A DNA stretch of 64,000 bases, taken from IMG/VR virus record IMGVR_UViG_3300042561_002102, one strand, 5' to 3'. Shown here one piece after another: positions 8,738-61,060 of the stretch; positions within the stretch are counted from its first letter, which is position 1, and each line of letters opens with the position of its first letter. Made by a program: the position numbers and the translations under genes. The notes under the pieces are model-generated. The model was not told the origin of the DNA. It searched no databases and was given only the letters and a program-made list of their open reading frames with translations. This DNA comes from a virus. Its lineage: Duplodnaviria > Caudoviricetes.

Positions 8738-9373
8738 ATGAAAAGTTATGTAGCTAGATTTGATTCTTACCAAAAACAAAAAAGAAGAGAAGATATCATC
8801 AAAGAATCGGTTCTTCAAGTAAATGATATTTACAAGGTGAGAACCATGGTTGATATTCCACAGAGTCTTATCAACGCTTATGTTAAAAAAGTAAAAGATG
8901 TTACTGGTAACAATCTTAGACAATTTTTCGGTGATGTTGATATCGCTGAAGAAATAATCAAGCATATCAATCTTAATTATTTAGATGCTGATAAAATTCC
9001 AGCAAATGCTTTGATGGGTGGTCCATCACAAACACAAACACAGACACAAGGACAAGCTCAAGGACAAGCCCAGACACAAGCACAACCACAAGCCCAGCCA
9101 CAAGCACAACCACAAGGACAATCCCAGCCACAAGGTCAAGCTCAGGGACAAGTCGAGCCACAAGGTCAAGCTCAGGGACGACCACAAGCCGAGCCACAAG
9201 CTCAACCACAAGCACAACCAGAAGATGAAGGACAATCACAGGGTCAAGTTCAAGTTCAAACCCAAGTTCAAGGACAAGGCGAGCCTGAAGATGAAGATTT
9301 TGAAGATCTAGAAGATGAAGAAACTGGTGAAGATGAAGAAGAGAGAGAAGAAGATACGGAAGAACTTCCTTAA
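8738..9373 (+). CDS. Hypothetical protein with Gln-rich repeats and acidic tail
   Basis: QAQG/QPQA repeats then EDEETGEDEEE; AATATATA upstream, terminator downstream. Confidence 0.85.
   Translation: MKSYVARFDSYQKQKRREDIIKESVLQVNDIYKVRTMVDIPQSLINAYVKKVKDVTGNNLRQFFGDVDIAEEIIKHINLNYLDADKIPANALMGGPSQTQTQTQGQAQGQAQTQAQPQAQPQAQPQGQSQPQGQAQGQVEPQGQAQGRPQAEPQAQPQAQPEDEGQSQGQVQVQTQVQGQGEPEDEDFEDLEDEETGEDEEEREEDTEELP
9022..9280 (+). repeat. Gln/Pro/Ala/Gly low-complexity coding repeat
   Basis: caa-rich 12-bp-like units. Confidence 0.85.
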
Positions 9374-9396
9374 CATATAAAAAAAAATAGAAAATG

Positions 9397-9424
9397 ACCT
9401 CACTTTTTCAAGTGGGGTTTTTTT
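9397..9424 (+). terminator. Intrinsic terminator
   Basis: Stem ACCTCACT/AGTGGGGT, 6-nt loop, T tract. Confidence 0.8.
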
Positions 9425-9453
9425 CTGCCTCAAATATTTCAATATATAGAATT

Positions 9454-10065
9454 ATGATGATAAAAACCTTCGAAAAGTTCAGGCACCAGGAGATACTCAT
9501 TATTGTGGATGTTCAGAAAAGTTTCCGTAAATTTTTTACAGAGATGTATCTGAACGAGTTGAAAAAATACTGCAAAGAGTTTGATAAGGTCTATTATATT
9601 TTTGATAATCATGTTGATGGTAAAAATGTTGATCAAGATTATCTCTATGATAGAAATGTTCAGGTCGAAGGTCATCCGGATCTCTATGAGTTTCCTAATA
9701 TGGAAGATATGATTGAAAAAAGATATAATTATGATGTTGATGTTGAATTTTTCAAAGATGTTCTCACTCACAAAACTTATCAAGAGATTAAAAAATTAGA
9801 ATCAAGAAAAAAATTGAAACGTGGAGATTTTTTCAGAACAAAAGAAAATACGATACTCGTCTATATCGGAAATAATCATCAGTGGTTTCACTGCCCGAAG
9901 AAACTCTACGAAGTTTTAGTAGAGAACACAGAAAATACCATTACAATTGTGGGTGGTAGTGATAAAGAGTGCCTAGAAGATGTTTTTATCACTGCCTCTG
10001 CACTTGGCGTTGAGATGAAAAGAAATTGGAAATATATCTACTCGGGATCTCATTGTCCTTTATAA
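9454..10065 (+). CDS. Cysteine hydrolase, isochorismatase/nicotinamidase (PncA-like) family
   Basis: LIIVDVQ (Asp), FDNH (metal DxH), IEK (Lys), GGSDKECL (Cys). Start moved to 9454 because the track start lies in the terminator and AATATATA sits at 9441. Confidence 0.7.
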   Translation: MMIKTFEKFRHQEILIIVDVQKSFRKFFTEMYLNELKKYCKEFDKVYYIFDNHVDGKNVDQDYLYDRNVQVEGHPDLYEFPNMEDMIEKRYNYDVDVEFFKDVLTHKTYQEIKKLESRKKLKRGDFFRTKENTILVYIGNNHQWFHCPKKLYEVLVENTENTITIVGGSDKECLEDVFITASALGVEMKRNWKYIYSGSHCPL

Positions 10066-10068
10066 ATA
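10061..10068 (+). promoter_or_regulatory. Exact T4-type late promoter TATAAATA
   Basis: TATAAATA 10 nt upstream of the gp25-like ATG at 10079. Confidence 0.55.
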
Positions 10069-10078
10069 AGTATTGAAG

Positions 10079-11438: not shown

Positions 11439-11508
11439 TGGGTTGATTATATGTGGAGGATTTCCGATTGTTTTCAAGAAAGATTAAAAAACAAATATAT
11501 ACAAAAAT

Positions 11509-12313: not shown

Positions 12314-13597
12314 ATGAAGAACTTGAAATTAGAATTATTTAACTTTGTAAGAAGTTTAAATTTAGATCAGGAAGAAATCTCGACCATAGTAAATTCACAT
12401 ATGGGTGCTATAGGTAGAGTATCTGAAAAGCAGGTAATTTCCTCCTTGAACGAATCATTGAAAATTCATACCTATGATAGATCAGTAAAGAATTTACTCG
12501 AATCACTCAATGATGACGTGGCAAATCATAGCCTTATTTATGAACTAAAGCACCTCTATAATGTTCTTAATTCTAAGAATCAAGGTGAGCTTTATAGACA
12601 ACCTATTAATGTTGTTCTTGAAGTTATCAACATGGAGTCTGATCAAGATAGATTAGGAAAAATTGTAAATGAGCTAGCTATTTATGACTGGGTTCCTGAA
12701 ATTAAACTATTTGTTCATAATCTTACTAAATCTCCTGAGCAAAGATCAAATCTTCTATCAGGGGGTAGTTCAGAAAGTGTCTATACTATAGTTGAGCAAG
12801 TAGAAGGTGGTTATTGTGCATTTATCAACGGCAGTTGGTTCCTTCTAACCGAGAGTGGCGTTGAAAAGACCCTTCTTGAAAACTGGGTTAAAAATGATGA
12901 AGATCTTAGAACTCTTAGAAACATCGAAACTGGTCTAAGGTATTCAATGATTCATGAAGATAGAATTAATTTCAGAATCTCTGAAAACTTAACTATCGGT
13001 CTTTCTGTAGCTAACGAAGGACTTATCTATATCAATGATGATAAGATGAACAAAGAAACTACACTAGAGACCTTATTTCAATCACCTATTATTCCTATTG
13101 CTAACAAAAACTTCTATCCCATTCTATTAGAAACACAGAAGAATATCGATAAGTTCGTTGAACTTGATGTAGTTAAAAGAGTAACTAATTTAGTTAATCC
13201 ATATTTAGAATGCTTTGTATTCAATTACAAAGCAGGCAACTATGTTTATCGTTGCGATCAAAGATACGGCAATTCATTCTATAAATACGACACGGCACTT
13301 GAGCTTGTAAATGAAATCAAAAATGAATTAAATAGCGATCTTACCTATTTCTTTGAGAATAAGTTAGATAAAGAAATTGTAAAAAATAGAAGATTAGAAG
13401 ATAAAGAAAGAGAAATAACTCTAAAATTAGAAGACGTAAATATAAATCTATCAAAAATCAATAATTCACTAAGAGTTACCGGAGAGTCAAAAATTCTTTT
13501 AGAGGCTCGTCAAAATCTTACAAAAAGAAAAGAACATTTAGAAGAAGAGTTGATGGCAGTCAAAGAAGTAAAGAGTTCAAATAAGTATAAAATGTAA
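12314..13597 (+). CDS. Hypothetical protein with C-terminal coiled coil
   Basis: 427-aa ORF with TATATA upstream and terminator downstream. Confidence 0.85.
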   Translation: MKNLKLELFNFVRSLNLDQEEISTIVNSHMGAIGRVSEKQVISSLNESLKIHTYDRSVKNLLESLNDDVANHSLIYELKHLYNVLNSKNQGELYRQPINVVLEVINMESDQDRLGKIVNELAIYDWVPEIKLFVHNLTKSPEQRSNLLSGGSSESVYTIVEQVEGGYCAFINGSWFLLTESGVEKTLLENWVKNDEDLRTLRNIETGLRYSMIHEDRINFRISENLTIGLSVANEGLIYINDDKMNKETTLETLFQSPIIPIANKNFYPILLETQKNIDKFVELDVVKRVTNLVNPYLECFVFNYKAGNYVYRCDQRYGNSFYKYDTALELVNEIKNELNSDLTYFFENKLDKEIVKNRRLEDKEREITLKLEDVNINLSKINNSLRVTGESKILLEARQNLTKRKEHLEEELMAVKEVKSSNKYKM

Positions 13598-17788: not shown

Positions 17789-18370
17789 TTACCAGAACCC
17801 CGGATATGACTTACCCCAAAGAGAGGAGAATCTGTTAGCACGACATGCCCAGTAACCAGGTGTCATTTTATCCTTTTTTTCACGACAATTATGTCTTTTC
17901 GAAAATCTAGCTCTTGCTTTCGGATCACTAACTTTAGCATTTAGACCACCTTTTACATCACCAAAATGAACTACTTTCACATTTCCAGTCTTGGGGTTTT
18001 TAACATAAACTTTATACTTTTTAGGTCCTGAACTTCTCATAGGTTTTCCAAGACTTACTTTTTTTCCTTTATATTCAGCTTCTGTAATAAACTCATCACA
18101 AAGTATCGGAAAATCAAGTGGCACCATTTCCCCTTCGAACTTTGCCCAAAGACCTAGATCACTCTCTTCAAAAAGAACTCGATCAGCATCACTCAATAAT
18201 TCTTGATGATTTCTTGATTCTCTTATCAACTCGAAAAATGAAGTAGATCCAGGTCTAAATATATTTTCCAAAACTGATATCTTATTTTCTAAGTGATAAA
18301 CTAGATTATTACTTGGCTTCTTATCGATGAAGTCCTCGAATTTTAATATATTCTCGTAAATATTTTCCAT
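17789..18370 (-). CDS. Hypothetical protein with basic C-terminal domain common in aquatic T4-like phages
   Basis: KYKVYVKNPKTGNVKVVHFGD...RHNC...PGYWAC; N-terminal KFEDF tag. Confidence 0.8.
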   Translation of the reverse strand: MENIYENILKFEDFIDKKPSNNLVYHLENKISVLENIFRPGSTSFFELIRESRNHQELLSDADRVLFEESDLGLWAKFEGEMVPLDFPILCDEFITEAEYKGKKVSLGKPMRSSGPKKYKVYVKNPKTGNVKVVHFGDVKGGLNAKVSDPKARARFSKRHNCREKKDKMTPGYWACRANRFSSLWGKSYPGFW

Positions 18371-27900: not shown

Positions 27901-28009
27901 TTGGTATTTTGCCTTCACTCTTAGTGTTGCTCCTGGTAGTGGAACTCTTTATGAAATGAATAATTACAATCTTTCTGCCACATATAGTTTGGGCGAAAGT
28001 TGTGTATAG
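24917..28009 (+). CDS. Putative virion protein: N-terminal domain, long Thr/Pro stalk, LamG/ConA-like domain
   Basis: ~250-aa TP region; FTLSMWIEP...LTFVMDG...MFWNG...[15 protein letters not shown] is LamG-like. Confidence 0.8.
26015..26775 (+). repeat. Thr/Pro mucin-like coding repeats
   Basis: acacc/aca-rich tandem units. Confidence 0.9.
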
Positions 28010-29607: not shown

Positions 29608-31146
29608 ATGATAATCACTAAACTTGAAAATTTTATTGGCGAATCTATTCTACAAGCTTCCAGTGAGTTGAAATCTTTACTTACTAATCTTGACGATCGG
29701 ATATCGAAGGTATTACTGAGCCTAATTGGTAAAGATGTAAAAACAAATTATAATTTCTTAAACTTAAGTGACGAAGCTGGTAAATTTACTTTTACAAGTG
29801 ATTCTCAAGCTAGTAGAAAACTCTCTAAAGGTGTAACTGAAGAAGAAATATTCTCTACTGGCAGTAAATCTTATGTAGGAAGAATAGTTCACTCAATACT
29901 AGAAGACAACGGTATTGAACATACTATGCAAGAAATCGAAATATTCACCAATAAATTCAAAGCAGCCGTAGAGTTGGGAAGATTTCGTGATAGAATAAAA
30001 GTAGTTAGTGGTGATGATATAGCTTTTTGGTATTCAGAAAATAACTACAATGAGAGAACAAGAAAAGGTATGGGTCAACTTGGAAAATCTTGTATGAGAA
30101 GTAGCAGAATCTCGAAATTTTTCAAGATTTATACGATGAATCCAGATACGGTTAGAATGGTCATTATTTTAGATGATGCTGAAAAACTCTCAGCTAGAGC
30201 ACTACTTTGGAACTATTCAGGTAAATTTTATCTAGATAGAATTTACTTTACAGAAGATTCAGAGCAAGAGTTGATGAAAAAATGGCTTGAAAAATATTAT
30301 TTACTAAGACCGTTAGATAAACTTTCTCTTTCGGATGATGTTGTTATTAAAAATACTGAAAACCCAGATGGAACATTTAATAAGTATCCTTATATGGATA
30401 CTTTTAAATTTTACAACCCAAAAAAGAAAACTCTTCGTGTTTTAGAACCATCAGACAAAAGTGGTTGGATTCAGATTTCAGATACTGGTGGTGGATTTGA
30501 GTATTTAGATAGAATATGGTGTGAGAATGAACAGGAGTGGTATCCAGAAGACAAGTGTGTTTATTCACAATATGATGATATTTACATACATAGAGATAAC
30601 GCGGTTTATTCTAAGTATTACTCGGATTACCTATATCGACCAGATGCTGTTTTTTCCGAAACGCAAAATAGTTGGCTTAAAGAAGGAAACTCTATTACCT
30701 TTTACACAGATTTCAATCAAAATGGAAAGGACGTCGTTGATAGAGATGAAATTATGGGTATTTGTTTTCCTAAACTAATAGAAGTTAAAAAAACTTACAA
30801 GGTTGTGTGGTTTAGTGATAAACTTTTCGATTCTGGTGAAAATAGTAGAACGCTAGTTGAGGATTACTACGATCTCCTAGTAAAATATTTTCCTCCAGAA
30901 GATGTCGAAATAAAATCAGAAGGTGAAAATAGGTATACCTTAAGTTCTCGTGAATATCCAAACTTTCTGGTGGTCGAAAAAAGGATATTGCTTGCTAATT
31001 TTTCATATCCAACATTACAGAAATTTTTTTGGGAAAAATTCAAATTAGTTGTTGATTATCATCTTGAAAAATATTGGTTTGAACAGGGCCTTAAAAGATA
31101 CTGGAAAGAGATAAAGGCTAAAAAAAATATTCAAGTAGAGTGGTAA
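29608..31146 (+). CDS. Uncharacterised SCM/RALLW/DRIY/YPYMD-family protein (paralog of 32880), CTS-like N-terminus
   Basis: GKSCMRS, ARALLW, YLDRIY, YPYMDTF. Confidence 0.8.
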   Translation: MIITKLENFIGESILQASSELKSLLTNLDDRISKVLLSLIGKDVKTNYNFLNLSDEAGKFTFTSDSQASRKLSKGVTEEEIFSTGSKSYVGRIVHSILEDNGIEHTMQEIEIFTNKFKAAVELGRFRDRIKVVSGDDIAFWYSENNYNERTRKGMGQLGKSCMRSSRISKFFKIYTMNPDTVRMVIILDDAEKLSARALLWNYSGKFYLDRIYFTEDSEQELMKKWLEKYYLLRPLDKLSLSDDVVIKNTENPDGTFNKYPYMDTFKFYNPKKKTLRVLEPSDKSGWIQISDTGGGFEYLDRIWCENEQEWYPEDKCVYSQYDDIYIHRDNAVYSKYYSDYLYRPDAVFSETQNSWLKEGNSITFYTDFNQNGKDVVDRDEIMGICFPKLIEVKKTYKVVWFSDKLFDSGENSRTLVEDYYDLLVKYFPPEDVEIKSEGENRYTLSSREYPNFLVVEKRILLANFSYPTLQKFFWEKFKLVVDYHLEKYWFEQGLKRYWKEIKAKKNIQVEW

Positions 31147-32867
31147 TCAAAGATTTCAGGCAGTTTCTTATCAGGGAAAACTTAGATGCTGCTAGAAAGT
31201 TTTTAGATAAAACTATTTATAAAGAGGATGAACCTGCACAAAAATTGTTTCGTAAAACTTTTGACAGGATTATCAAAAGATTAGGATCGAAAGTTGGATG
31301 GTCATTACTTTTTACCCGATTTTATTTTCAAGAAGGTATCGAATTGTCTAGACTTTTTAGAGATGAGAATACACCTGAAATCGGAGCTCTTTACGATAGA
31401 CTTTCAGGTATAAATCCGGGCGATCTACCTCGTCAATTGGATGAATATCCAAAGCTTGAAAATGGATTCGAAATACTTTCTGATGATATTAGAGATTTAG
31501 AAGAGAGGGCGAGTGTGAAAGATTTCATACAAAACTTACCAGGTCAATTTGTTGTAACAAATAAATATTCATCTAAACTTGGTCAAACTATACCTTCTAT
31601 GAAAGAGGAGTTTAGAAGAATGTCGCCAGAAAAAAAAAGAGAAGTTATTCAACTTGCGATAGCTATTCGTCAATCAGGAGAGGCTAAATACAAAGCTTTC
31701 ATACAAAAAGTTAAAAGATATGGATCCCTATCAGAACTTATAACAGCAGGTAAAAAATATTTACTTGCTCTAAATCTTGAACAGGAAGAAAACTATCTAG
31801 AAAAGATAAGTTCACTTCCTGAGAAATTTGTAGAAGTTCTTTTCGATAGATTTTCTATCTATATTGTAAAAGTAGATAGTTTTTTTGTAAATCAAAGATT
31901 ACACGGTATGACTTCACATTGTATAGCAAAAGATATTGGACACTGGAATACCTATTATCTACCTGAAAATACACAATACTATATTACAAACTTTAATCTT
32001 GATTCGTCAGATCCTCTATCAGTTATAGGAGCGACGGTTTATCCCAATGGGAAATTCAAGACTATTCACTCTAAATTCGATAAAAAGATGAGTACAGACG
32101 AACTTATTTCGTATCTTGATGGATTAGAAAAAGAATTTAGAATTGATATCGATTTACTAAAATTTCTAAAACCGATAACATATCCAGAAATATTAGTTCG
32201 AGAAAAAAGAAAAGAGGCAAATATAAAAATTAAAAAAACAGGACTTTCTTTAGTAGAGATCCAAAAATTACTAGAGGATGGAGCAGATCCAAATGGAACT
32301 TTTGGAGAACCTCTCAAAAATGCCATAAACGAAAATAACATAGAAAAAGTTGAATATCTTTTACAAAACGGAGCGGATCCCAATATCTTAGAAAGAGAAC
32401 TATCTTTCGGAAATGTTTTTAGTATAAAATCAAAAGAGATTTTTTTCTTACTTATTCGTTATGGATTAAAGAACACATCTACTAAAACTTTATTTAGAAT
32501 ATACGATGATTTTTCTAAAGAGGGTCTACAATATTTAGTTAGAGAACTAGGTATAGAATCTATAAATCGGTTTGATGCTCATTTATTGAGAAAGTCGGTT
32601 GTTCGTAAAGAAGTAGATTCTGTTAGGTGGCTGCTCCAAAAAGGAGCTAATCCTACCGTTAGAGGTGGCGAGCCTATACATCTAGCTATTGATGAATATA
32701 AAAAAATCGAGAAGATTTCACCTGAACAAGCTAAAAAAGTTCTAGATATTATTGGTTTATTATACAATAGTCTTGAGACGAGTGAAATAGGTAGAAAAAT
32801 TATTCAGGGTGTTAGTAAAAGTCCAGATAGATTGGAGATATTGAATAAATCTAGAAAAAAATATTAA
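31140..32867 (+). CDS. PcfJ-like (HC motif) domain plus C-terminal ankyrin repeats, CTS-like N-terminus
   Basis: TSHCIAKDIGHWNTY; LLEDGADPN, LLQNGADPN, LLQKGANPT ankyrin signatures. Confidence 0.75.
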   Translation: MVIKDFRQFLIRENLDAARKFLDKTIYKEDEPAQKLFRKTFDRIIKRLGSKVGWSLLFTRFYFQEGIELSRLFRDENTPEIGALYDRLSGINPGDLPRQLDEYPKLENGFEILSDDIRDLEERASVKDFIQNLPGQFVVTNKYSSKLGQTIPSMKEEFRRMSPEKKREVIQLAIAIRQSGEAKYKAFIQKVKRYGSLSELITAGKKYLLALNLEQEENYLEKISSLPEKFVEVLFDRFSIYIVKVDSFFVNQRLHGMTSHCIAKDIGHWNTYYLPENTQYYITNFNLDSSDPLSVIGATVYPNGKFKTIHSKFDKKMSTDELISYLDGLEKEFRIDIDLLKFLKPITYPEILVREKRKEANIKIKKTGLSLVEIQKLLEDGADPNGTFGEPLKNAINENNIEKVEYLLQNGADPNILERELSFGNVFSIKSKEIFFLLIRYGLKNTSTKTLFRIYDDFSKEGLQYLVRELGIESINRFDAHLLRKSVVRKEVDSVRWLLQKGANPTVRGGEPIHLAIDEYKKIEKISPEQAKKVLDIIGLLYNSLETSEIGRKIIQGVSKSPDRLEILNKSRKKY

Positions 32868-32879: not shown

Positions 32880-34388
32880 ATGAAGATAAAAGGTTGGCAA
32901 GATTTCATACTAGAAAGTGTTCTACATAGTTCTGATAAGTTTTTAGATTATCTTAGAAGGATTGACAATAAGATAGCTAGAGAATTGATAAATCTTCTAG
33001 GAAAGGATATTAAAACAAAGTATAACTTCTTGAATGTTGCAGATAGTGAGGGTGATATTTTTTTCTGGCCAGATTCTAAAGTTCAGAAAGATAGTTCAAC
33101 ACTTTCAACTAGACCCTCTAAAGGATCACTTGGAAGAGTTATAGGCGGAATACTTAGAGATAATCAGATTGAGTTTACCTCTAAAGAACTCGAAGATTTT
33201 GTAAGAAGATTCGGAGCTCTATGGCTAGCCGAAAACGTTGACCCCAATAGATATCAAATAGTTGAAGGTGATGATATTCGTAAATGGTATTTAGAATCTA
33301 ACTACTCAGAAGAAACCAAATCAGGGGTGGGGACTTTGGGAAAATCTTGTATGAGATACAAACATTGTAGTAAGTTTTTGGATATTTATGTTCTCAATCC
33401 AAAGGTAGTAAAGATGTTGATTCTTTTAGACCAGAAGGGTGAGCTAAGAATGAGAATGCTCGTTTGGGATTTAGATGATGAGTATTACTGCGATAGATGT
33501 TACTATACAAGAGAATCAGAACAAGGTGCAGCTATTCAATGGCTTGAAAAAAACCTAGACAAACCTCTTATAACCGATTTGGATTCAGAATATGAATACT
33601 ACATAAAATTAGAAAAATCTACTCTATCTGGCGGTGAATTTACACATTACCCCTATATGGATAGTTTCAAGTATTATAATCCAAAAGAAATGGAGCTATC
33701 GACTGAAGAACCTGAAACTGAAAGAAAAGATTGGTATTTAATCAATCAAACGGATGGTGGCTGTGAACGACTAGGTATCGTCTATTGTGTTTATGAAGAC
33801 GGAGAGTATCCCGAAGAGGATTGTGTTTGGAGTGAACCAACCGGCACTTGGCTCTTACGAACCAATGCCGTAGAATCCACTTACCACCAGGGATGGTTAC
33901 ACAAACCAGCTAGCGTGTGGTCTGAAAAACTCGGAAGTTGGATAGTGAAAGCTGTCTCAAAAGAAGCTTGGATTGATCTAAAAAAGACTAAAAAAAGTTG
34001 GTTACCTACTAATTTAACTTCTAGTTTTATAAGTGGTGGTCGTCTAGAGTATTGGGATTCAGACCTAAAAAAGCAAGATGAAAAACCAGAAAAGGTTATA
34101 TTGGACTGGTTACTCGAAAAATATCCAGTAAGTGAGCTAAAAATAAGTAAGCGGGAAAAAGATCAACTTATGGATTCTCAAATTTACTACAAAAACTTTC
34201 CCGTTCTTGAGTTCATTTCTAAGATTGGTATAGTTGGTGGTACTGTTTTTTCAGATGAAATTACGAGAGAAATTATCCAAACTTTTTTCTCTGGTGAAGA
34301 AGATAGTTCTAATTATGAGATGGGTCAAATAATGCACAGTGCTAGATTTAATTATACAAAGATGATCCAAAAACACTTTGAAAAATAA
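32880..34388 (+). CDS. Paralog of 29608 (SCM/DRxY/YPYMD family), CTS-like N-terminus
   Basis: GKSCMRY, RMLVW, YCDRCY, YPYMDSF. Confidence 0.8.
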   Translation: MKIKGWQDFILESVLHSSDKFLDYLRRIDNKIARELINLLGKDIKTKYNFLNVADSEGDIFFWPDSKVQKDSSTLSTRPSKGSLGRVIGGILRDNQIEFTSKELEDFVRRFGALWLAENVDPNRYQIVEGDDIRKWYLESNYSEETKSGVGTLGKSCMRYKHCSKFLDIYVLNPKVVKMLILLDQKGELRMRMLVWDLDDEYYCDRCYYTRESEQGAAIQWLEKNLDKPLITDLDSEYEYYIKLEKSTLSGGEFTHYPYMDSFKYYNPKEMELSTEEPETERKDWYLINQTDGGCERLGIVYCVYEDGEYPEEDCVWSEPTGTWLLRTNAVESTYHQGWLHKPASVWSEKLGSWIVKAVSKEAWIDLKKTKKSWLPTNLTSSFISGGRLEYWDSDLKKQDEKPEKVILDWLLEKYPVSELKISKREKDQLMDSQIYYKNFPVLEFISKIGIVGGTVFSDEITREIIQTFFSGEEDSSNYEMGQIMHSARFNYTKMIQKHFEK

Positions 34389-38171: not shown

Positions 38172-39824
38172 ATGTCACTATACAAAGATGTAAATAGATT
38201 CAAACCAAGGCAAGAGCAAGTAGATTGCCTTGAGCATATGAAAGTTGTTTTAGATGAAAATCCAAAAACAAAGTTTTTTCTACTGAACCTTCCGGTCGGA
38301 ACTGGTAAATCACATCTAGCGATGATGTTTTCAGATTACTATACCAGAAAGATAAATAAAACTGCGAAAATCGATATCGTAACAGCTTCGAAAATCCTAC
38401 AAGATCAATACGAGGATGAGTATGTAAGTATTTGTAATCTCAAAGGTAAAGAAAACTATAACTGTCAGCAGTATAGCTGCTCGTGTATGCAGGGTAAAGA
38501 GTTTGGAAAACTTAATAAATCTCCCTGTGATATGTGCCCCTATGACGAAGCTAGAAACGGTTGGATTGGTGGTAAAATTTCTCTTACTAACTTCTACCTC
38601 TATCTTATTTATACAATTTATAATGAAAAACTACTCGATCTGAGAAGTCCAAATGTTTTAATCGTAGATGAAGCTCATGAACTTGATTCGGTGATATCTG
38701 ATTTTATTTCTATTAAAATTACAGAAAACACAATCAAAAAGTTGAAGTTTCCAGATGAAAGAGGTATTATCAATAAACTCAAACGTGTTACGAATATCGC
38801 CACCTACATTAACTTTCTAAAAGAGTTTGTTATTGATATTTCAGAGAATATAGCTGAGCTTCAAAAAACGATGGGTGAATCACCAAGAAGTGCGAAAGCC
38901 GACAGACGTGAAAATAGAATAGGAAAAATCACTGGTAGTAAAAACCCTGATATGAAGCTCATGAATATCTTGAATGATCTGACAAGCTATATCACCAAGA
39001 TTGAACTTTTTCTAAAAGAATGGGAAGCCACACCAGACAATTGGGTATTAGAAACTAACTGGAACGAAAAGACACGTCAAAAAGAACTCTCACTTGAACC
39101 TATCTGGTCACAAGAATACTTGAATAAATATCTTTGGTCTAAGTATGATCTAGTTATTTTAATGTCTGGAACTATTATTGATAAGGAACTTTTTTGTGAT
39201 ATCAATGGTATCAATCCAAAAGAGGCTATTTATTACTCTATACCTTCCCCTTTTGATGCTCAGAATAGAAAGATTTTCTATTTACCGATGGGGAAAATGT
39301 CTTGGGAGAAAAAAGAAGAAACTTTCAAGAACTATGTCGAGGTCTTACCGAAAATCTTGAAAAAATATTCCGGTAAAAAAGGTATTATCCATACGAACTC
39401 GTTTGAGCTTTCTGGTTGGATAAAAGAGGCGGTATCGGATGATAGACTACTTTTTCATGATAGTGATAATAAAAATGAAATTTTACAACATCACTACCAA
39501 ACCGACAAGCCTTCGGTGATTGTTTCACCATCGATGTCCACAGGTGTTTCTTTTGATCATGATAGAGCTAGATTTCAGGTGATTGCTAAGATTCCCTACC
39601 CAAGTCTTGGTTCTCAGAAAAATAAAATGAGAAAGCAGCAAAATCCAAACTATTACGCCTGGAAAACTTGCTGTGGTATTATACAAATGTGTGGAAGAGC
39701 TGTTCGTTCACATACAGACTTCGCTGATACGATTATTATTGATTCGTCTTTTGGTGATGTTTTGAGGTATTCATCTAAGTATTTACCTCAATGGTTTTTG
39801 AGTTCAGTTCAGAGTAAAGGTTAG
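38172..39824 (+). CDS. DinG/Rad3-like SF2 helicase
   Basis: PVGTGKS, DEAH, MSGT, Cys cluster, QMCGRAVR. Confidence 0.88.
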   Translation: MSLYKDVNRFKPRQEQVDCLEHMKVVLDENPKTKFFLLNLPVGTGKSHLAMMFSDYYTRKINKTAKIDIVTASKILQDQYEDEYVSICNLKGKENYNCQQYSCSCMQGKEFGKLNKSPCDMCPYDEARNGWIGGKISLTNFYLYLIYTIYNEKLLDLRSPNVLIVDEAHELDSVISDFISIKITENTIKKLKFPDERGIINKLKRVTNIATYINFLKEFVIDISENIAELQKTMGESPRSAKADRRENRIGKITGSKNPDMKLMNILNDLTSYITKIELFLKEWEATPDNWVLETNWNEKTRQKELSLEPIWSQEYLNKYLWSKYDLVILMSGTIIDKELFCDINGINPKEAIYYSIPSPFDAQNRKIFYLPMGKMSWEKKEETFKNYVEVLPKILKKYSGKKGIIHTNSFELSGWIKEAVSDDRLLFHDSDNKNEILQHHYQTDKPSVIVSPSMSTGVSFDHDRARFQVIAKIPYPSLGSQKNKMRKQQNPNYYAWKTCCGIIQMCGRAVRSHTDFADTIIIDSSFGDVLRYSSKYLPQWFLSSVQSKG

Positions 39825-40126
39825 TCTTGTGGCTTAGAGGCAAGAAGTTGTCTTCTTCTGGCAGCTCCTGCTTTTTGTCTAATCATCTTCATTATTTCTT
39901 CACGAGACTTTCTTTTGGGAGTTCTAGTCATAGAATTTCTCTCGGATCTTGATTCACCAAGTGGTGAGATACCCTCTGGCATATCATCATCACCTTCGAT
40001 AGTATCTTCTCCTTCGAGATCAAACTCAGTAATCTTTTCTTTACCCTTTAACATAGGTGAGTCTTGCTCTATATTTTGAATTTCCTGCTCTGGTTCGTAA
40101 TTTTCGAAAGTCTTTAAAAATTTCAT
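39821..40126 (-). CDS. Small hypothetical protein with CTS-like N-terminus
   Basis: MKFLKTFENY; TATATA upstream at ~40146. Confidence 0.8.
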   Translation of the reverse strand: MKFLKTFENYEPEQEIQNIEQDSPMLKGKEKITEFDLEGEDTIEGDDDMPEGISPLGESRSERNSMTRTPKRKSREEIMKMIRQKAGAARRRQLLASKPQD

Positions 40127-44640: not shown

Positions 44641-45285
44641 ATGATAAGAACTTTTCATCAATTTATTCGACAAACATGTTGGAAATCAGATGACAAATAT
44701 GCTATAATAGGAACAATTCATCCACATAGAGTAGATGATTTTGATCTGAACTTTTTTTATGGAAATAAGGGTTTTCTCTGGAGCATACTCGGACAAGCTT
44801 TTCCAAATCTAGATTTTACAACCGTAGAATCTATAAAAAGAATACTATCGAGAAATCGTATTTGGATTACAGATATGATTGAAGAATGTAGTAGGCCACA
44901 TGAGAGAGAAACCAGAGATAGTCATCTATATGATTTGAAATTGAATACTAAACTTATAGAAGAAGGTCTTCGGGGATCACAAATTGATACTATATTTCTA
45001 ACTTCAAGATTTGAAAGGAATAACGCTGCTGAATTGTTTATAAGAGCTTTTGGTTTAGATCTTTTATCATGGAACGAAGAATTATCACAGTTCATTATAC
45101 CTTCTTCTAAATTTGGTAGAGAAATCAGAGCAGTAGTTCTCTTCTCACCGTCTGGTCGTGCGAATCTTGGTATTTCTAGATCAAAATCATATCTAGCCAG
45201 TAAAGATAGATACGGTCAAGAAAAGAATCCAGTGGCTTTATTCAAGATTGATTTTTATAGAGATAAATTCGCATTCTTAGTATAA
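44641..45285 (+). CDS. Uracil-DNA glycosylase superfamily (Mug-like) protein
   Basis: IIGTIHP, FFYGN..FLW, IWITD, C-terminal LFSPSG. Confidence 0.65.
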   Translation: MIRTFHQFIRQTCWKSDDKYAIIGTIHPHRVDDFDLNFFYGNKGFLWSILGQAFPNLDFTTVESIKRILSRNRIWITDMIEECSRPHERETRDSHLYDLKLNTKLIEEGLRGSQIDTIFLTSRFERNNAAELFIRAFGLDLLSWNEELSQFIIPSSKFGREIRAVVLFSPSGRANLGISRSKSYLASKDRYGQEKNPVALFKIDFYRDKFAFLV

Positions 45286-50985: not shown

Positions 50986-52452
50986 TTACTTTTTAAATTT
51001 AGAGATTAACTCTACTTTTTCGTTGATTCTTTCAAGCTCTTGAAGATAAACTTTCGATTCTTTAAGATATTTCGAAAGTTCTTTAACCCTATCGAAGTCG
51101 GCCTTATCAAGTGCCTGATCTATCTCATCATTAAGACGAGATTGTGACCAGGTAGATGGGTCGGCTTCTTTTTGTGCTGTTTTTTGCTTGAGATCAGCTA
51201 TATCATCCTGTTCTTCTCCATCCGAACTAGTAGTTGCTAGATCACCATCATCTGGATAATCACGAGTAATCCAATCTATAATACCATCTATCTGGTTTTT
51301 AGCACTTGATGCTTTATATTTAGCATCATTAAGAACAAATCTACCATTCTGGAGATCGAAACAAGAGAATATTTCTTTAACAATATCTAAAAATAATTTA
51401 TCCGAATATTCTCCGCCATTATTTGGGTGTCTTGAAAGTTCGATCAATACGAACTCGACCATGTTTTCACCATCATCAATTCTTTTTGAGCTATTTTTAA
51501 TACAACGTTTTGTAAATTCAATAAACATCATACGAGCAACTGGCCCATAACGAAAATCTTCAGTTTCATCTTTGAAGGATGAGGTATACTTTTTAATATC
51601 TTGTTCTTTTTCAACATCTCCGGTGTTAGATACTGCTCTTGGACCAAGACGAATAAGTGCTTTTGAAGCTTCGTGTAGTAGCATTGTAAAATCAAGAGCT
51701 CTTACGATAATCCATATTTGTTTTGGATCTCTATTCCAATCAACGTCATTTGAACCGGCCATACCAGCTGGTTGATTCTTCATCATTCTTGCTTTATCAT
51801 CACCCGGCCAAGCCCAGTCTAATTTATTTCCTAAGCGCATCGTATCGCTTGTTATTCTTTTAAATTCAGTAGCTTTATATCCGAATATTTCTTCAAGATC
51901 TTGATCGATAGTAGGATAACTATTCATTATTTCTTCTACCTCAAATCCAGCACCTTGACCGAGCATATCAATTATTTTTTGTTTTGACACGCTATATTTG
52001 ATATCTTTAGGTGTGTCAGATGATAGAGTTTTTTGCGGAAATGCCGGTTTTTCTCTCAATCTTGGAGATTCATCAATAACATCTTTACCTTCTGGTAAGA
52101 TTTGCATATCAAAGATGATTCGTCTTTTCGTGGTCGCCTCAGCTACTTCGATAAGATCTTTATATTTGTGTTGAATAATCTTTTCTGCTAACTCAGAAAG
52201 ACTATTTAATCTCTCTATTTTTTCAACTTGAGTTAATTTTTTACCCCTATCGTCTTTTGACATAATATCTTTAGCACGATCAAGTAACCCCATGAGCTCT
52301 GGTCCAAACTGACGCATTTGACTTGGATCATCGGGTGTTGTTCCTAGAGTTTCTCTAGCGTATCTTTTCGATTTTGGAATAAAATCATCTGGTAATCCTT
52401 CGATATCTTTAACATCGACTTCTTCTTTGATAAACTTTAGAAAATTCTTCAT
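50986..52452 (-). CDS. Hypothetical protein, CTS-like N-terminus, HExxK motif
   Basis: MKNFLKFIKEE; MLLHEASKA. Confidence 0.8.
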   Translation of the reverse strand: MKNFLKFIKEEVDVKDIEGLPDDFIPKSKRYARETLGTTPDDPSQMRQFGPELMGLLDRAKDIMSKDDRGKKLTQVEKIERLNSLSELAEKIIQHKYKDLIEVAEATTKRRIIFDMQILPEGKDVIDESPRLREKPAFPQKTLSSDTPKDIKYSVSKQKIIDMLGQGAGFEVEEIMNSYPTIDQDLEEIFGYKATEFKRITSDTMRLGNKLDWAWPGDDKARMMKNQPAGMAGSNDVDWNRDPKQIWIIVRALDFTMLLHEASKALIRLGPRAVSNTGDVEKEQDIKKYTSSFKDETEDFRYGPVARMMFIEFTKRCIKNSSKRIDDGENMVEFVLIELSRHPNNGGEYSDKLFLDIVKEIFSCFDLQNGRFVLNDAKYKASSAKNQIDGIIDWITRDYPDDGDLATTSSDGEEQDDIADLKQKTAQKEADPSTWSQSRLNDEIDQALDKADFDRVKELSKYLKESKVYLQELERINEKVELISKFKK

Positions 52453-52616
52453 CTTTTTTCAAAATATTGATTTATCTCTCCCTTCCCTTCGTTGGAGAGT
52501 GTTTTATAGATCTCTTGTAATCTCTCTACCATCATATCTGCACCACTTTTTGTCACAGGTTTTTGTTGTGTTGTGGCAGGATCCGAGAAACTTTCGAACT
52601 TACGAATGTGCTTCAT
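52449..52616 (-). CDS. 55-aa protein with CTS-like N-terminus (below ORF-track cutoff)
   Basis: MKHIRKFESFSDPATT...QYFEKR*; TATATA at 52634; stop overlaps next ATG. Confidence 0.75.
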   Translation of the reverse strand: MKHIRKFESFSDPATTQQKPVTKSGADMMVERLQEIYKTLSNEGKGEINQYFEKR

Positions 52617-53989: not shown

Positions 53990-56401
53990 ATGATAAAATT
54001 TTACTCGTCCAGACTTCTCAATAAAGTAGAAAAAACTACAATATCTGGAGTAGCCAAAACTTCTTTTTTTACAGAAATATCTACGGGTGTTTCTCCTGGA
54101 ACCAGAATGTTTATTCTGAACGGTAACTACGACTCGAATGATTTCATTCGTAAAAGTAGATATGGTAAATTTGTGGATGGTTATCGAGTATTGAGAAGTG
54201 AAGCCAATAAACTTACACTTGATATAGATTGGACCGGGCTTCCACCAACGGGTGACGCACTATCCGGAAATTCTATCAACATCTGGGTTGTAAGAACAAA
54301 ATCAGAGTTTGATTATTTGGATAGTATTCTTGTGGATCTATACGATACGAGATGTTCAAAATTTGAATATCGTATTACTTCTAATGTTATCTATACTGAG
54401 AACTTAGTGTTTACCAATCAGTTTTTTATTAAAGGTTTCTGGGCAAAAGATGGTAATACTTGGAAACTTATATCAACACATTTCGATCAAGGTTTTATTA
54501 ACTATTTCTTACCAAAATGGACCGATTATGGATATTCTACGAACTATAAAATAAAGATAAGAAATCATGGTTTTGTTTATAAAAATCAAGAGTTTATTAA
54601 AGGAGCTACCTACTTTTTCAACAATCCTGTTTGGCTTTATGATATACAAGTAGCAAATTCTTTTATATCTCGTCTTAATTTTAGAGATGGTCTTTTCAAG
54701 GGAACTTTCAAAGACGGATTATTTGGTAGCAACGAGAAAAAGTTACTTTTCGAAGCTAAATGGATGTCGGGTATTACCATCAACTCACAAATAAAAGATT
54801 CACAAATAAGAACTAAATCTCAAGTAGGTGAAAATGTTACACTTGGGTTTGTTCAAGATAACATTATTAACTTCTTTTCTGATAAGAGTAACAACGATAG
54901 TTATGGTCTTAGTTACTTTTTTGATTCAACAATTGAAAGTGCTCAGATTTATGCTGGTAATTTCATCAATTGTAACTTTGCTTGTGATCTAAATCCTGAA
55001 GTTACAGATATCATACCTACAACAACTACCAATTGTCTTCAATACGGCAATTGTTGTACTACAACAACTACAACTACTTCTACATCAACCACTTCTACTA
55101 CAACACTCTGTCCGTGTTGCGATCCAACACCATCGGTAACACAAACAAATACACAATCACCAACAATTTCACTCACCCCAACTATCACACCAACAAATAC
55201 TGGAACACCAACAAATACCGAAACACCAACCGAAACACCTACAAATACATCAACCAATACGGAAACTCCCACAAACACTTCAACTCAGACAACTACACCA
55301 ACAATTACCGATACTCCTACGCAAACTCCAACCGAAACACCCACATCTACAATAACAGTTACAAATACTGAAACACCAGGTACGTCACCATCTGAAACCC
55401 CTACCGAAACTCCGACTGAAACTCCTACACCAACACACACAAATACCGAAACTCCTACAAACACACCCACTGTTACACCAACAATCTCTTATTATTTTTA
55501 CTTTCTTTTAGACTGTGATTTGAGTAATAATAAAATAGGTAGAAGTATTTCAAGTAGTCTAACCGGAACTTACAATGTCTCACCTAACAAGTGCTATCAA
55601 ATAGCAGGAATAGATTTAGGCCCTTCTTGGGATTATGATCTAGACATCTCAACCTCTGTTGCAAATTGTTCTGATATTTTGTGTATCCCTGTTACACCGA
55701 CACAAACACCTACACCAACAATTACCGATACTCCTACCGAGACCCCAACTCAAACACCAACCAATACTGAAACACCAACCGAAACTCCAACGGAGACCCC
55801 AATCGAAACACCAACCGAAACACCTACACCAACAATTACTGATACTCCTACCGAGACTCCAACTCAAACCTCAACCAGTACAGAGACACCAACAAATACC
55901 GAAACACCGGGTGCGTCACCATCCGAAACCCCTACTGAAACACCTACGCCGACAAATACCGATACTCCTACGGAGACACCAACTCAAACACAAACACAGA
56001 CACCTACTGAAACACCTATACCGACAAATACCGAAACACCAACCGAAACTCCTACGGAGACACCTACTGAAACACCAACTGAAACACCAACCAATACCGA
56101 AACACCAACTGAAACTCCTACGGAGACACCTACTGAAACACCAACTCAAACACCAACCAATACCGAAACACCGACTGAAACTCCTACGGAGACACCTACT
56201 GAAACACCAACTGAAACACCAACACAGACACCTACTGAAACATCTACACCAACACCTACACCAACACAGACACCTACTGAAACATCCACACCAACACCTA
56301 CACCAACAATAACACCAACTGAGACTGAAACATTTTTCTTATTACAAGAAAATCTATCCACACTACTCCAGGAAAATGGTTCAAGAATACTAATCAATTG
56401 A
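53990..56401 (+). CDS. Putative virion protein with two long Thr/Glu/Pro stalks
   Basis: ~340-aa globular N-terminus, CC-TTTT linker, TETP repeats, short interstalk domain. Confidence 0.85.
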   Translation: MIKFYSSRLLNKVEKTTISGVAKTSFFTEISTGVSPGTRMFILNGNYDSNDFIRKSRYGKFVDGYRVLRSEANKLTLDIDWTGLPPTGDALSGNSINIWVVRTKSEFDYLDSILVDLYDTRCSKFEYRITSNVIYTENLVFTNQFFIKGFWAKDGNTWKLISTHFDQGFINYFLPKWTDYGYSTNYKIKIRNHGFVYKNQEFIKGATYFFNNPVWLYDIQVANSFISRLNFRDGLFKGTFKDGLFGSNEKKLLFEAKWMSGITINSQIKDSQIRTKSQVGENVTLGFVQDNIINFFSDKSNNDSYGLSYFFDSTIESAQIYAGNFINCNFACDLNPEVTDIIPTTTTNCLQYGNCCTTTTTTTSTSTTSTTTLCPCCDPTPSVTQTNTQSPTISLTPTITPTNTGTPTNTETPTETPTNTSTNTETPTNTSTQTTTPTITDTPTQTPTETPTSTITVTNTETPGTSPSETPTETPTETPTPTHTNTETPTNTPTVTPTISYYFYFLLDCDLSNNKIGRSISSSLTGTYNVSPNKCYQIAGIDLGPSWDYDLDISTSVANCSDILCIPVTPTQTPTPTITDTPTETPTQTPTNTETPTETPTETPIETPTETPTPTITDTPTETPTQTSTSTETPTNTETPGASPSETPTETPTPTNTDTPTETPTQTQTQTPTETPIPTNTETPTETPTETPTETPTETPTNTETPTETPTETPTETPTQTPTNTETPTETPTETPTETPTETPTQTPTETSTPTPTPTQTPTETSTPTPTPTITPTETETFFLLQENLSTLLQENGSRILIN
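55015..56330 (+). repeat. TETP/TNTETP coding repeats (two blocks)
   Basis: 12-bp gaaacaccaac-like units. Confidence 0.9.
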
Positions 56402-57557: not shown

Positions 57558-57576
57558 GAGAGTTAAACAACAAATA

Positions 57577-58650: not shown

Positions 58651-58689
58651 GTATAAATGTGGTAGAAGGCATAATCTTTACGAGGTTCT

Positions 58690-58725
58690 AAAAGTAGATA
58701 GTCAAAAGCTATCTACTTTTTTTTT
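58690..58725. terminator. Bidirectional intrinsic terminator
   Basis: AAAAGTAGATAG/CTATCTACTTTT stem with T tract between convergent genes. Confidence 0.88.
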
Positions 58726-59440
58726 ACAATCTAAGTAGTCTTTCGAGCTCTATATGTTTAATAAGATCAAAATCTGAAGCTGTAAGATCCAGTTTAGGTT
58801 CAATTTTTTCGATAGCCCAGTCCATCACTGAAAGGTTATTTCTTTTTGGATCAAGTAGTGACTTACAAGTAGCTTCGAGTAAGATTTTCATCTTTACCTC
58901 TTGAGAGTTTCTATCAAATTTACGTATATGACGTTGAACTCGCATATCAGGCACTTTTTCATCAAATAGATTACTCAACTGAATCTCGCGAAGCTCTTGC
59001 TGGGTAGCTCTACGAAAAGCGCCAATCGCGAGCCACCTTTGATAACCTTCTATTTTGACCTTCACATCAAACCATCTACCTGATGAACCACGTTGAACTT
59101 TATTAACTTCTAGAATCTTGTAAAACTCACCACGTCGAAGGTATTTAGAAGACTCCCTTTCACAAACTAAAATCTCACCTCGAGTAAGTTGTTCGGGATT
59201 TTCAACCCAGGTTTTATAATCACTACCTACTCCATATCCAGAGGCTGTCCAGTTTGTTACCGGGATGGGATTTCCATTCTCAAGTGTGAAATATTCAGGC
59301 AAGTAGTGACCTAGAGATTTAATAACTACGTAAGGTCTAAAAAAACGATTGGTGTTTCCACTAACCATAACGGTTTTAACGCATTCGTAAGTTGCTCCTT
59401 TGACTAGACTTCGGTTTGCCTTTACACATTTCAAGTTCAT
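58724..59440 (-). CDS. Hypothetical protein (two similar SH3-like modules)
   Basis: 238-aa ORF; TATATTTG host-type -7 element upstream at ~59457-59464. Confidence 0.8.
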   Translation of the reverse strand: MNLKCVKANRSLVKGATYECVKTVMVSGNTNRFFRPYVVIKSLGHYLPEYFTLENGNPIPVTNWTASGYGVGSDYKTWVENPEQLTRGEILVCERESSKYLRRGEFYKILEVNKVQRGSSGRWFDVKVKIEGYQRWLAIGAFRRATQQELREIQLSNLFDEKVPDMRVQRHIRKFDRNSQEVKMKILLEATCKSLLDPKRNNLSVMDWAIEKIEPKLDLTASDFDLIKHIELERLLRL

Positions 59441-59503
59441 AGATTACTTTTTTTTACAAATATACGAAAAACTTTTCAGAGTTTATATATACAAACTAAA
59501 ATT

Positions 59504-59977
59504 ATGAAATACCCCGTAACCAGAGAAGGCCTACAAAAAATGGAAGGCGAACTAAAAGACCTAAGATCCAACAAACTTAGACGAGCGATTGAACTTTTAC
59601 AAGATGCTAGAGAAAGAGGTGATCTTCTAGAAAACTCAGAATATCATACTGCTCGAGAAATCTACGAAGATTGTCAGAACCGTATCCAAAAACTCGAACA
59701 TCTTATATCTACAGCGCTTATCATCGAACAAGGCGCAGTTGGATCACAAACCGTTCAAATACTAACACTTGTTAGCGTCAAGAACCAAAAGACCGGAACT
59801 ATCCAAAAATTTGAGATTGTTCCAGAAAACGAGATAGATACCAAATCCGGGAAAATATCCTATAAAAGTCCGGTGGGTAGTGGTCTTATCGGAAAATCTC
59901 GAGGCGAGAGCGCTACTATACAAACACCAACTGGATCTATTGAACTTGAAATCTTAGATATTTCACCCTTAATCTAA
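59504..59977 (+). CDS. greA: Transcription elongation / cleavage factor GreA
   Basis: ARERGDLLENSEY (catalytic D and E), ISYKSPVGSGLIGK. Confidence 0.93.
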   Translation: MKYPVTREGLQKMEGELKDLRSNKLRRAIELLQDARERGDLLENSEYHTAREIYEDCQNRIQKLEHLISTALIIEQGAVGSQTVQILTLVSVKNQKTGTIQKFEIVPENEIDTKSGKISYKSPVGSGLIGKSRGESATIQTPTGSIELEILDISPLI

Positions 59978-59983
59978 AAAAAA

Positions 59984-60865
59984 ATGAATATAAGAGAACT
60001 TTTTCTAGAACTCACTACTAGAACGTATCCTTCTGGAACTGAAGATGAGATGTTTCATCTTTTACCAAAAGGAACTATTCGTGATTTTTCTGGAAATTAT
60101 TTTATAGAAATCGGAGATTCTCAAACTATTTTTACCTCTCATTTAGATACGCACGGAGATACCGTTCAACCTATCAATCATCGTTTCAGTGGAGATCTTA
60201 TTCTCTCTGATGGTAAGACTATACTTGGTGCTGACGATAAAGCAGGTGTCTCTCTAATGATGTATATGATACACCACAAAGTTCCAGGTCTCTATTACTT
60301 TTTTAGATCAGAAGAAGTAGGATGCCTTGGTTCAAAAGAAATAGCTAATGAGATGAACTTGAGTAACTGGAAAAGAATTGTATCTTTTGATAGACGAGGA
60401 TATAACTCAGTAGTAACCCATCAATCTTTGGTAAGAACTTGTAGTGATGATTTTGCTAACTCACTCGCCCAAAAACTAAATAGACACGGACTTGAGTATA
60501 AACTAGATACTCAAGGTGTTTCATCTGATTCTTACTCTTTTATCGATAATATTTGTGAATGTACGAACTTATCGGTTGGATACCAAAACGAACACCTCAC
60601 CAAAGAATCTCAAGATATACGGTTTCTTGATCTACTTGCTACAACTCTTATTAGAATAGATTGGGAAGATTTACCTACACAAAGAAAACCTCGACAAAGA
60701 GAATGGATCGGTCAATCTCAAATCAAACCATCAGATTATAAACCTCCACAAAAATCTTCTAAATCTTCAAATAAGGTTTCGACTGAATCTAAGAAATCAA
60801 AGAAATTCTCGAAAAGATTAAATCTTTTTGGTTCAAGTAAAGAATCAGGCTTCTGGACTCGCTGA
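59984..60865 (+). CDS. M20/M28 family metallopeptidase
   Basis: SHLDT, LGADDKAG, SEEVG, SFDRRG, EH. Confidence 0.88.
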   Translation: MNIRELFLELTTRTYPSGTEDEMFHLLPKGTIRDFSGNYFIEIGDSQTIFTSHLDTHGDTVQPINHRFSGDLILSDGKTILGADDKAGVSLMMYMIHHKVPGLYYFFRSEEVGCLGSKEIANEMNLSNWKRIVSFDRRGYNSVVTHQSLVRTCSDDFANSLAQKLNRHGLEYKLDTQGVSSDSYSFIDNICECTNLSVGYQNEHLTKESQDIRFLDLLATTLIRIDWEDLPTQRKPRQREWIGQSQIKPSDYKPPQKSSKSSNKVSTESKKSKKFSKRLNLFGSSKESGFWTR

Positions 60866-61060
60866 TATAATATCTTTACGAGTGATTAGCTCGGCGGGTG
60901 CGTTTTTTATTTGTGAACCAGCCACCCCGTGATCTACTAAATACTTTCTACCACGAATTTCTTTAATACGCACCGGTGTTATCATGCCGTTATACCAATA
61001 AGATATATAAACAACATCATCTACTCCATAGTAGTTACTCCATTCGAGTAAGTATTCCAT
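60845..61060 (-). CDS. Small hypothetical protein
   Basis: 71 aa, MEYLLEWSNY start, AATATATA upstream. Confidence 0.7.
   Translation of the reverse strand: MEYLLEWSNYYGVDDVVYISYWYNGMITPVRIKEIRGRKYLVDHGVAGSQIKNAPAELITRKDIISASPEA

Follow-up and report, generated by a model that had tools for sequence, protein, structure and literature searches.

A recurrent N-terminal peptide resembling the T4 capsid-targeting sequence in a huge Bacteroidota phage and its relatives

Described capsid-targeting systems and the phage studied

The capsid-targeting sequence (CTS) of phage T4 is reportedly the work of Mullaney and Black and is said to have been known since 1996. The internal proteins IPI-III and the Alt propeptide carry it as the peptide MKTYQEFIAE, which is removed by gp21 (PMC9026906, PMC3012670, PMC8442874). 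In IPIII, targeting depends on residues 4 and 7 (Tyr4 and Phe7) and processing on residues 8 and 10 (PMC9026906). Here we describe a similar N-terminal peptide, hereafter the tag, on proteins encoded by a 64,000-nucleotide stretch of viral DNA, IMG/VR record IMGVR_UViG_3300042561_002102 (the window, meaning the whole stretch that was analysed), and on proteins of its relatives. A sequence-only reading of the window had listed ten such proteins and likened their N-termini to the T4 CTS. This likeness was borne out by a shared register (M1, K2, F7 and, between them, position 4 filled by a hydrophobic or aromatic residue), as can be seen when MKNFLKFIKE is compared with T4 MKTYQEFIAE (PMC8442874).

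Two further systems serve for comparison. The phiKZ-like phages (phiKZ gp175, 201phi2-1, SPN3US gp245; PMC5694885, PMC7411985) are giant phages with tens of head-internal proteins, whose propeptides are mostly long (often >100 residues) and share only (S/A/G)-x-E, with no common 10-residue peptide. The T-even phages have hypervariable internal-protein loci, which are arrays of unrelated small tagged genes (PMC3012670). Proteases of the S77 and S80 families cleave after Glu (PMC9026906, PMC5694885).

The window has a guanine-plus-cytosine (GC) content of 32%, and 12 kb of it gave no match to GenBank phages by megablast; IMG/VR did not contain an exact 36-mer taken from it. Its terminase was compared with those of other phages:

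5281-7425: T4-type large terminase

This protein is 65% identical to the terminase of G001, a 464.6-kb IMG/VR contig from a relative of the window phage with a CheckV completeness of 98%. Its identity is 59-61% to LR756502 and LR745206, two 'uncultured phage' records of 634-735 kb, and 41-43% to LR756504 and LR756501. It has been reported that all genomes larger than 634 kb fall in the Mahaphage clade, with Bacteroidetes as predicted hosts (Al-Shayeb et al., PMC7162821). The window phage is a huge freshwater phage of Bacteroidota, i.e. a megaphage. To our knowledge, no cultured member of the clade exists.

A tag on about one in eight proteins

All ten N-termini of the earlier list were found at their positions, five of them on the + strand (genes starting at 8738, 9454, 29608, 31140 and 32880) and five on the - strand (18370, 40126, 52452, 52616 and 61060). 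A post hoc pattern, [KR].?[FWL][EDQRHS].[FY] within the first 16 residues, matched 10 of the 58 open reading frames (ORFs) of the window, where 0.7 matches were predicted from internal windows and 1.2 from composition-preserving shuffles. Because post hoc fitting was to be avoided, a fixed rule was applied to independent genomes, namely a hydrophobic residue at i-3, F/Y/W at i, F/Y at i+3 and a preceding K/R, with i = 5-10. The rule selected 8/58 ORFs in the window (13.8%, against 0.8% of internal windows) and 70/535 in G001 (13.1%, against 0.5-0.7% internally and about 2% of shuffled N-termini). Its yield was 46/483 ORFs (9.5%) in other IMG/VR relatives, 41/535 (7.7%) in LR756500 and 54/545 (9.9%) in LR756501, and the excess over internal windows was 15- to 25-fold in the window and the four relatives. 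The sequence-only reading had named shuffled sequence as a comparison by which the motif could be refuted, and here the tag was found at 13% against about 2%. The negative control was PTm1, a T4-like jumbo phage of Tenacibaculum that is AT-rich, has a similar GC content and infects a host of the Bacteroidota; under the fixed rule it gave 0/55 annotated coding sequences, and the tag signal is therefore not a composition effect. The tag is real and more widespread than the ten proteins first listed, being present on about one in eight proteins of the phage and its relatives. The window genes for replication and nucleotide metabolism carry no tag.

Two forms of the tag can be distinguished. The majority form, given as the G001 consensus, is M1-K2-(Y/H)3-(L/I)4-K5-x-F7-E8-x-F10; 46 of the 70 G001 tags have their first aromatic residue at position 7, and the information content is down to background directly after F10. 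The minority form is aromatic-x-x-F-(I/L)-x-E, carried in the window by the genes at 29608, 31140, 32880 and 52452, which are also the only 4 of the 10 window tags with an (I/L)-x(1-2)-E processing site. A strict (I/L/V)-x-E directly after the aromatic pair was found in 11% of tags in G001, 26% in LR756501 and 49% in LR756500, against a background of 2-3% after internal aromatic pairs. The motif starts at residue 8 in the gene at 18370, at residue 5 in that at 8738 and at residue 4 in that at 61060, not at residue 1. The consensus also differs among relatives, reading MKYIKEYEEF(I/L)xE in LR756500 (L092-L111) and MIKKFxxF(I/L)NE, with the short form MIKKFxxF, in LR756501 (L112-L131). These lineage-specific versions point to a signal that may be evolving by lineage.

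The tagged genes of the window are listed below (aa, amino acids), and two additional candidates are given in the last lines.

8738..9373, + strand: 211-aa protein, MKSYVARFDSY, a degenerate tag
9454..10065, + strand: 203-aa clade-conserved protein, MMIKTFEKF, then a short linker and strand beta-1 (ILIIVDVQ)
17789..18370, - strand: 193-aa protein, MENIYENILKFEDFID, tag offset by 4 residues
29608..31146, + strand: 512-aa protein, MIITKLENFIGES, T4-like form with I-G-E
31140..32867, + strand: 575-aa ankyrin-repeat protein, GTG start, (V)VIKDFRQFLIRE
32880..34388, + strand: 502-aa protein, MKIKGWQDFILES, T4-like form with I-L-E
39821..40126, - strand: 101-aa acidic ORF, MKFLKTFENY, majority form, TATATA box at -26
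50986..52452, - strand: 488-aa protein, MKNFLKFIKEE, best match to the T4 register (M1, K2, F4, F7, I8, E10)
52449..52616, - strand: 55-aa ORF, MKHIRKFESF, exact majority form (L/I at 4, F7, E8, F10)
60845..61060, - strand: 71-aa protein, MEYLLEWSNY (L4, W7, Y10)
44641..45285, + strand: 214-aa protein, added candidate, MIRTFHQFIRQ, T4-like form with Gln in the expected Glu place
12314..13597, + strand: 427-aa clade-core protein, possible member, MKNLKLELFNF, N-terminus kept as far as LR756501

Most tagged proteins have no known family. Apart from a NUDIX hydrolase, an M12 metallopeptidase, an Acb1-type 2H phosphoesterase and an OmpA domain, a Pfam search of 66 tagged G001 proteins gave little; the NUDIX, Acb1-type and M12-type enzymes would be of use to the phage as it enters its host. 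In the window, the 488-aa protein has no known family, and all of its 16 homologues (16/16) start MK.[FY]..FIKEE, with variants reading MK(T/S/R)F(E/S)(K/E)FIKE. Atlas leads from this protein to LPD-type polyvalent-protein domains all scored <0.9 and were not used. The 55-aa ORF, which overlaps the start of the tagged gene at 52452 and has a TATATA box at -25, had no homologue among the loci compared.

The label 'nicotinamidase-like' had been attached to the 203-aa protein at 9454. Some of it stands as a weak fold match, since the best Foldseek rows were nicotinamidases and isochorismatases (E=1e-3, TM-score 0.42-0.54), but no Pfam hit was obtained at E<=0.01. Residues D19, K89 and C173 are invariant and were not superposed on the known Asp-Lys-Cys triad. 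The true start of this gene, called as an ORF from 9394, is 9454, as indicated by the starts of orthologues and by a terminator-like hairpin and a TATATA box upstream. The pattern M.[YF][IL]K.FE.[FYH] is retained in the 114 of its 120 homologues that were readable, ahead of a linker that spans about 3-10 residues and in most cases 3-6. The ankyrin label for the protein at 31140 was confirmed (PF00023 Ank, 28.6 bits against a cut-off of 21.1, residues 395-416). The term 'PcfJ-like', used for the proteins at 29608 and 32880, found no backing, as no Pfam family was matched at E<=0.01 and the fold search returned weak GNAT/FemX-like rows. These two proteins are paralogues (35% identity over 467 aa) and form the sole paralogous pair among the tagged proteins of the window. 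The protein at 32880 belongs to a large huge-phage family in which nearly all members start MK.K.Y.EF[IL].ES and the tag is kept at identities down to 25%.

Five pairs of window and G001 orthologues could be compared, and 5/5 keep the aromatic pair while the other tag positions differ. Orthologues of the 8738 protein begin MNHIRKFQSF or MKHVRNYEKF, and the G001 orthologues of the proteins at 18370, 31140 and 61060 begin MRYINLFNKF (68% identity from residue 20 on), MLKKYTTFLKE and MKFILEYKNY, respectively. Among the readable homologues of the 203-aa protein at about 60% identity, the tag is under purifying selection and the neighbouring linker drifts. In AlphaFold2 (AF2) models of the 203-aa and 502-aa proteins, the predicted local distance difference test (pLDDT) score is 43-50 over the tag and 81-97 over the subsequent residues; in the 502-aa model, the score stays below 50 over residues 1-10 and reaches confident values after them. 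The models fit a tag that is a flexible N-terminal appendage.

At the DNA level, the twelve window gene starts have no common sequence longer than 13-19 nt, and the upstream DNA of tagged G001 genes shares only TATATA boxes at a variable distance. In the 27 strict G001 tags, Ser is encoded by TCA/AGT/TCC, Leu by TTA/CTA/TTG/CTN, and Tyr by TAC in 6 cases and TAT in 5. Nucleotide conservation over the start codon (upstream and at synonymous sites), which would be expected of a cassette junction of the PeSL or attC-like kind, was not found. When the first 16 residues were removed from 71 G001 proteins selected by a looser tag pattern, they fell into 66 unrelated BLAST groups. Judged from these comparisons, selection on the tag acts at the peptide level, and the tag is portable, modular and kept in orthologues. 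Given the variable synonymous sites and the unconserved upstream DNA, an origin of the tag in a repeat of the DNA was rejected. Paralogy was rejected as a general explanation on account of the 66 groups and applies only to 29608/32880.

Head genes of the relatives and a possible route into the capsid

A gp21-related protease, a scaffold and a gp23-type capsid protein were found in G001, LR756500, LR756501, LR756502 and LR756504, and in 38 IMG/VR loci including that of G001. In G001 the gp23-family capsid protein (86.7 bits) and the portal are separated by a 690-aa protein:

L023:11866-13938 of G001, - strand: protease-scaffold fusion, with a protease domain, repeats, then an acidic tract and a conserved C-terminal domain; also in relatives (L048-L051, L053-L088)

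The N-terminal domain of this protein matches PHROG head-maturation proteases. A PF03420 profile search of the whole of G001 gave no hit; direct hmmscan of the protease domain then matched Pfam Peptidase_S80 (30.6 bits, above the cut-off), with S77 at 21.8 bits, below its cut-off of 27. By tblastn, the domain matched annotated gp21 of cyanophages, RaK2 and others (E 1e-13 to 1e-18), and phmmer of the protease-scaffold protein against PDB sequences gave no hit. The middle of the protein consists of tandem 14-residue repeats with the core Y-S-E-Y-(I/L)-A-E and the consensus NIAYSEY(I/L)AE(N/H)LDK. All 34 full-length homologues in relatives have 9-15 such repeats ending (I/L/V)-A-E; in LR756500 the repeats are degenerate. 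The degenerate pattern aromatic-x-x-[FY]-[ILV]-x-E occurs 57 times in the G001 proteome; 10 of these occurrences are in the scaffold and 15 within the first 12 residues of non-scaffold proteins, where about 1.5 were expected.

A TATATA element had been described upstream of most of the ten genes. This is true for 7/10, but in the window the element does not discriminate, as it also precedes 25/48 of the other genes (P=0.49). In G001 the box precedes 49 of the 70 tagged genes (70%) and 162 of the 465 untagged ones (35%; odds ratio 4.4, P=3e-8), and the genes for the capsid protein, the protease-scaffold, the portal and the terminase are likewise preceded by it. In G001, tagged genes and head genes have this promoter box in common. 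A separate observation on this box concerns positions 3308-3352 of the window, where the divergent genes 3023-3307 (-) and 3353-4192 (+) have back-to-back TATATA boxes between them. This arrangement looks like a compact bidirectional promoter, and a similar layout is seen at 5228-5280 and 7707-7756.

Compared with the T4 CTS, the megaphage tag is likewise strictly N-terminal and about 10 residues long; it starts M-K, position 4 is hydrophobic or aromatic, and position 7 is Phe; a subset of tags ends in (I/L)-x-E, and the carriers are unrelated, fast-evolving accessory proteins. The clade further resembles T4 in its gp23-type capsid, T4-type terminase and gp21-related protease. It differs in that the majority form, F-E-x-F, lacks (I/L)-x-E, the consensus varies by lineage, the protease is fused to its scaffold, and about 60 proteins per genome are tagged, against about five in T4; the tag is known here from sequence alone. 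New relative to T4 are the consensus and its lineage versions, the fusion of protease and scaffold, and a scale that is about tenfold larger. With the phiKZ-like phages, the clade shares giant size, many candidate head-internal proteins and an S80-family, Glu-cutting protease, whereas the short common peptide has no counterpart there. Arrays like the T-even internal-protein loci exist, e.g. at 39.4-43.6 kb of G001, but the megaphage tagged genes are spread genome-wide and include clade-core proteins of 200-500 aa. Basic or aromatic N-terminal extensions have also been described on phage rpS21 (Al-Shayeb et al., PMC7162821). In the relatives, rpS21 lacks an N-terminal extension, and the extensions described are therefore not the present tag in these genomes. 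Among the papers listed, none linked capsid targeting to megaphages, and the Mahaphage papers do not mention it.

These comparisons lead us to favour, by a modest degree, the reading that the common N-terminus serves as a portable address of about ten residues, i.e. a T4-like capsid-targeting tag. The (I/L/V)-x-E enrichment and the promoter box in common with the head genes point to the head. From the T4 precedent we infer core binding, cleavage, virion retention and injection of the tagged proteins, in a course that could run as follows. Tagged genes would be transcribed from the TATATA-box promoters of the head genes, and the flexible peptide would dock its cargo on the scaffolding core of the assembling T4-type prohead, made of a gp23-like shell, the portal and an S77/S80-family protease fused to 9-15 Y-S-E-Y-(I/L)-A-E repeats. 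The Glu-specific protease would then degrade the scaffold and clip the (I/L)-x-E tags, and the cargo would be retained in the head and enter the host along with the DNA.

Several results weigh against capsid targeting. The head module does not lie within the 64-kb window, and the protease and scaffold are known from relatives alone. The association of TATATA with the tag is not significant in the window. The majority F-E-x-F form has no (I/L)-x-E site, and if its conserved Glu8 is considered instead, the P3 residue is inconsistent. About 60 tagged proteins per genome is far above the handful in T4; the sole comparable count is that of roughly 50 head proteins in SPN3US (PMC5694885). Finally, a position-specific scoring matrix (PSSM) built from the scaffold repeats alone placed N-termini at 3 of its top 40 hits, against 1.8 expected, and therefore the resemblance of scaffold and tag holds only at the level of the degenerate pattern. 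The idea that the tag is a copy or mimic of the scaffold repeat was dropped after this failure of the PSSM to recover the N-termini.

A wider form of the capsid-targeting reading is put forward tentatively, as possible and somewhat doubtful. It holds that a lineage-specific address code, derived from the aromatic-x-x-aromatic-(I/L)-x-E unit of the scaffold, loads about 10% of the proteome (about 60 proteins, mostly unknown) for co-injection in megaphages of the Mahaphage clade, with cargo including an anti-defence-type Acb1-like phosphoesterase and a NUDIX hydrolase. If the tag does load proteins into the capsid, those delivered with DNA by the largest known, uncultured phages could be listed from their genomes, and roles in immediate-early host takeover or counter-defence could be proposed for dozens of unknown proteins. 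The tag would also offer a short transplantable peptide for the packaging of foreign proteins in Bacteroidota phages. Its lineage variants (MKYLKxFExF, MKYIKEYEEF(I/L)xE and MIKKFxxF) would represent a natural experiment on the co-evolution of a sorting signal and its receptor.

Among the alternatives, the one that survives best is that the tag is a real address peptide for another hub, such as a chaperone, a modifying enzyme, the phage ClpP (for which it would act as N-terminal degron or adaptor site) or some other structure that the phage builds. The portability and peptide-level selection of the tag would suit such a hub equally, as they imply no physical tie to the capsid; the majority form without a T4-type cleavage site fits it too, and about 13% of the proteome would be a great deal of cargo for one capsid. 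In the window ClpP adjoins two tagged genes and the G001 ClpP adjoins tagged genes as well, but with 13% of genes tagged such adjacency is expected by chance. As for a modifying enzyme, such as a radical-SAM/SPASM maturase that recognises a leader peptide, radical-SAM PF04055 had no match in the 98%-complete G001; the control search matched in 14/14 genomes. Since the register and residues fit the experimentally mapped positions of the T4 CTS (PMC9026906), and the (I/L/V)-x-E enrichment and head-gene promoter box point to the head, another hub is considered unlikely, though it is the main rival.

As an observation on the protease itself, the window gene at 52697-53413 (+) encodes a phage ClpP (CLP_protease 193 bits, also matching PHROG head-maturation protease families) and is followed by a DUF5856 protein at 53472-53945 (+); its G001 orthologue lies at 357258-357788. 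As the clade has an S77/S80 prohead protease besides, candidate roles for ClpP are those of a second maturation protease or of an enzyme for the turnover of host or phage proteins.

It is improbable that the tag has no sorting role and is simply the best way for this clade to begin a coding sequence, as an intrinsic N-terminal helix that benefits expression or folding. N-termini in AT-rich genomes do favour Lys, Phe, Glu and Asn codons, and TTT at Phe7 (25/27) and GAA at Glu8 (23/25) are somewhat above their genome-wide shares of 67% and 76%. Shuffled N-termini, however, do not approach the observed frequency, and PTm1, with similar GC and the same host phylum, has no tags. What is conserved is the order of residues, not their composition, Ser and Leu switch codon families, and the window replication and nucleotide-metabolism genes go untagged. 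Least probable of all, and by our estimate very much so, is a by-product of DNA events (a shared 5' cassette or recombination site carrying promoter, start and first codons) or of paralogy, with a functionless peptide: it could draw on the paralogy of 29608 and 32880 and on the arrays of some tagged G001 genes, but it conflicts with the absence of long shared DNA at the window gene starts, the varying upstream regions and synonymous sites of G001, the 66 unrelated groups and the purifying selection on the tag. Expression or folding bias and DNA hitch-hiking are both disfavoured by the shuffle, codon and control-phage tests.

Other genes of the window

The window also encodes a gp44-like clamp loader, a truncated family-B DNA polymerase, DnaB-type and XPD-type helicases, a ribonucleotide reductase, a carbamoyltransferase and the ClpP described above. 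Four groups of genes are of separate note:

36666-38162, + strand: family-B DNA polymerase ORF limited to the exonuclease domain and roughly the initial third of the polymerase domain
34399-36003, - strand: NodU/CmcH-type carbamoyltransferase (Carbam_trans_C 202 bits)
42868-44478, + strand: GHKL/MORC-like ATPase (HATPase_c_3, 71 bits), downstream of an 817-aa protein without Pfam or PHROG match
15724-17451, - strand; 24249-24893, + strand; and 28031-28834, + strand: proteins with a common N-terminal module of about 100 aa

The polymerase-domain match of the first gene spans profile positions 24-149 of 453, and an XPD-like helicase gene lies directly downstream; the family-B DNA polymerase of the window appears to be split. 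The carbamoyltransferase is located amid tagged genes and is an unusual auxiliary enzyme for a phage. The common module of the last group has the pattern MA.V.F/W...NC(T/S)L (BLAST E about 1e-8). Matches to phrog_15511 were found in proteins of 575-1030 aa including those at 15724-17451, 24917-28009, 53990-56401 and 1-2529, one of them cut by the window edge, and this set overlaps with the module set only in 15724-17451. From their sequences, the proteins of both sets look like a fibre or receptor-binding family with a common anchor and variable ends.

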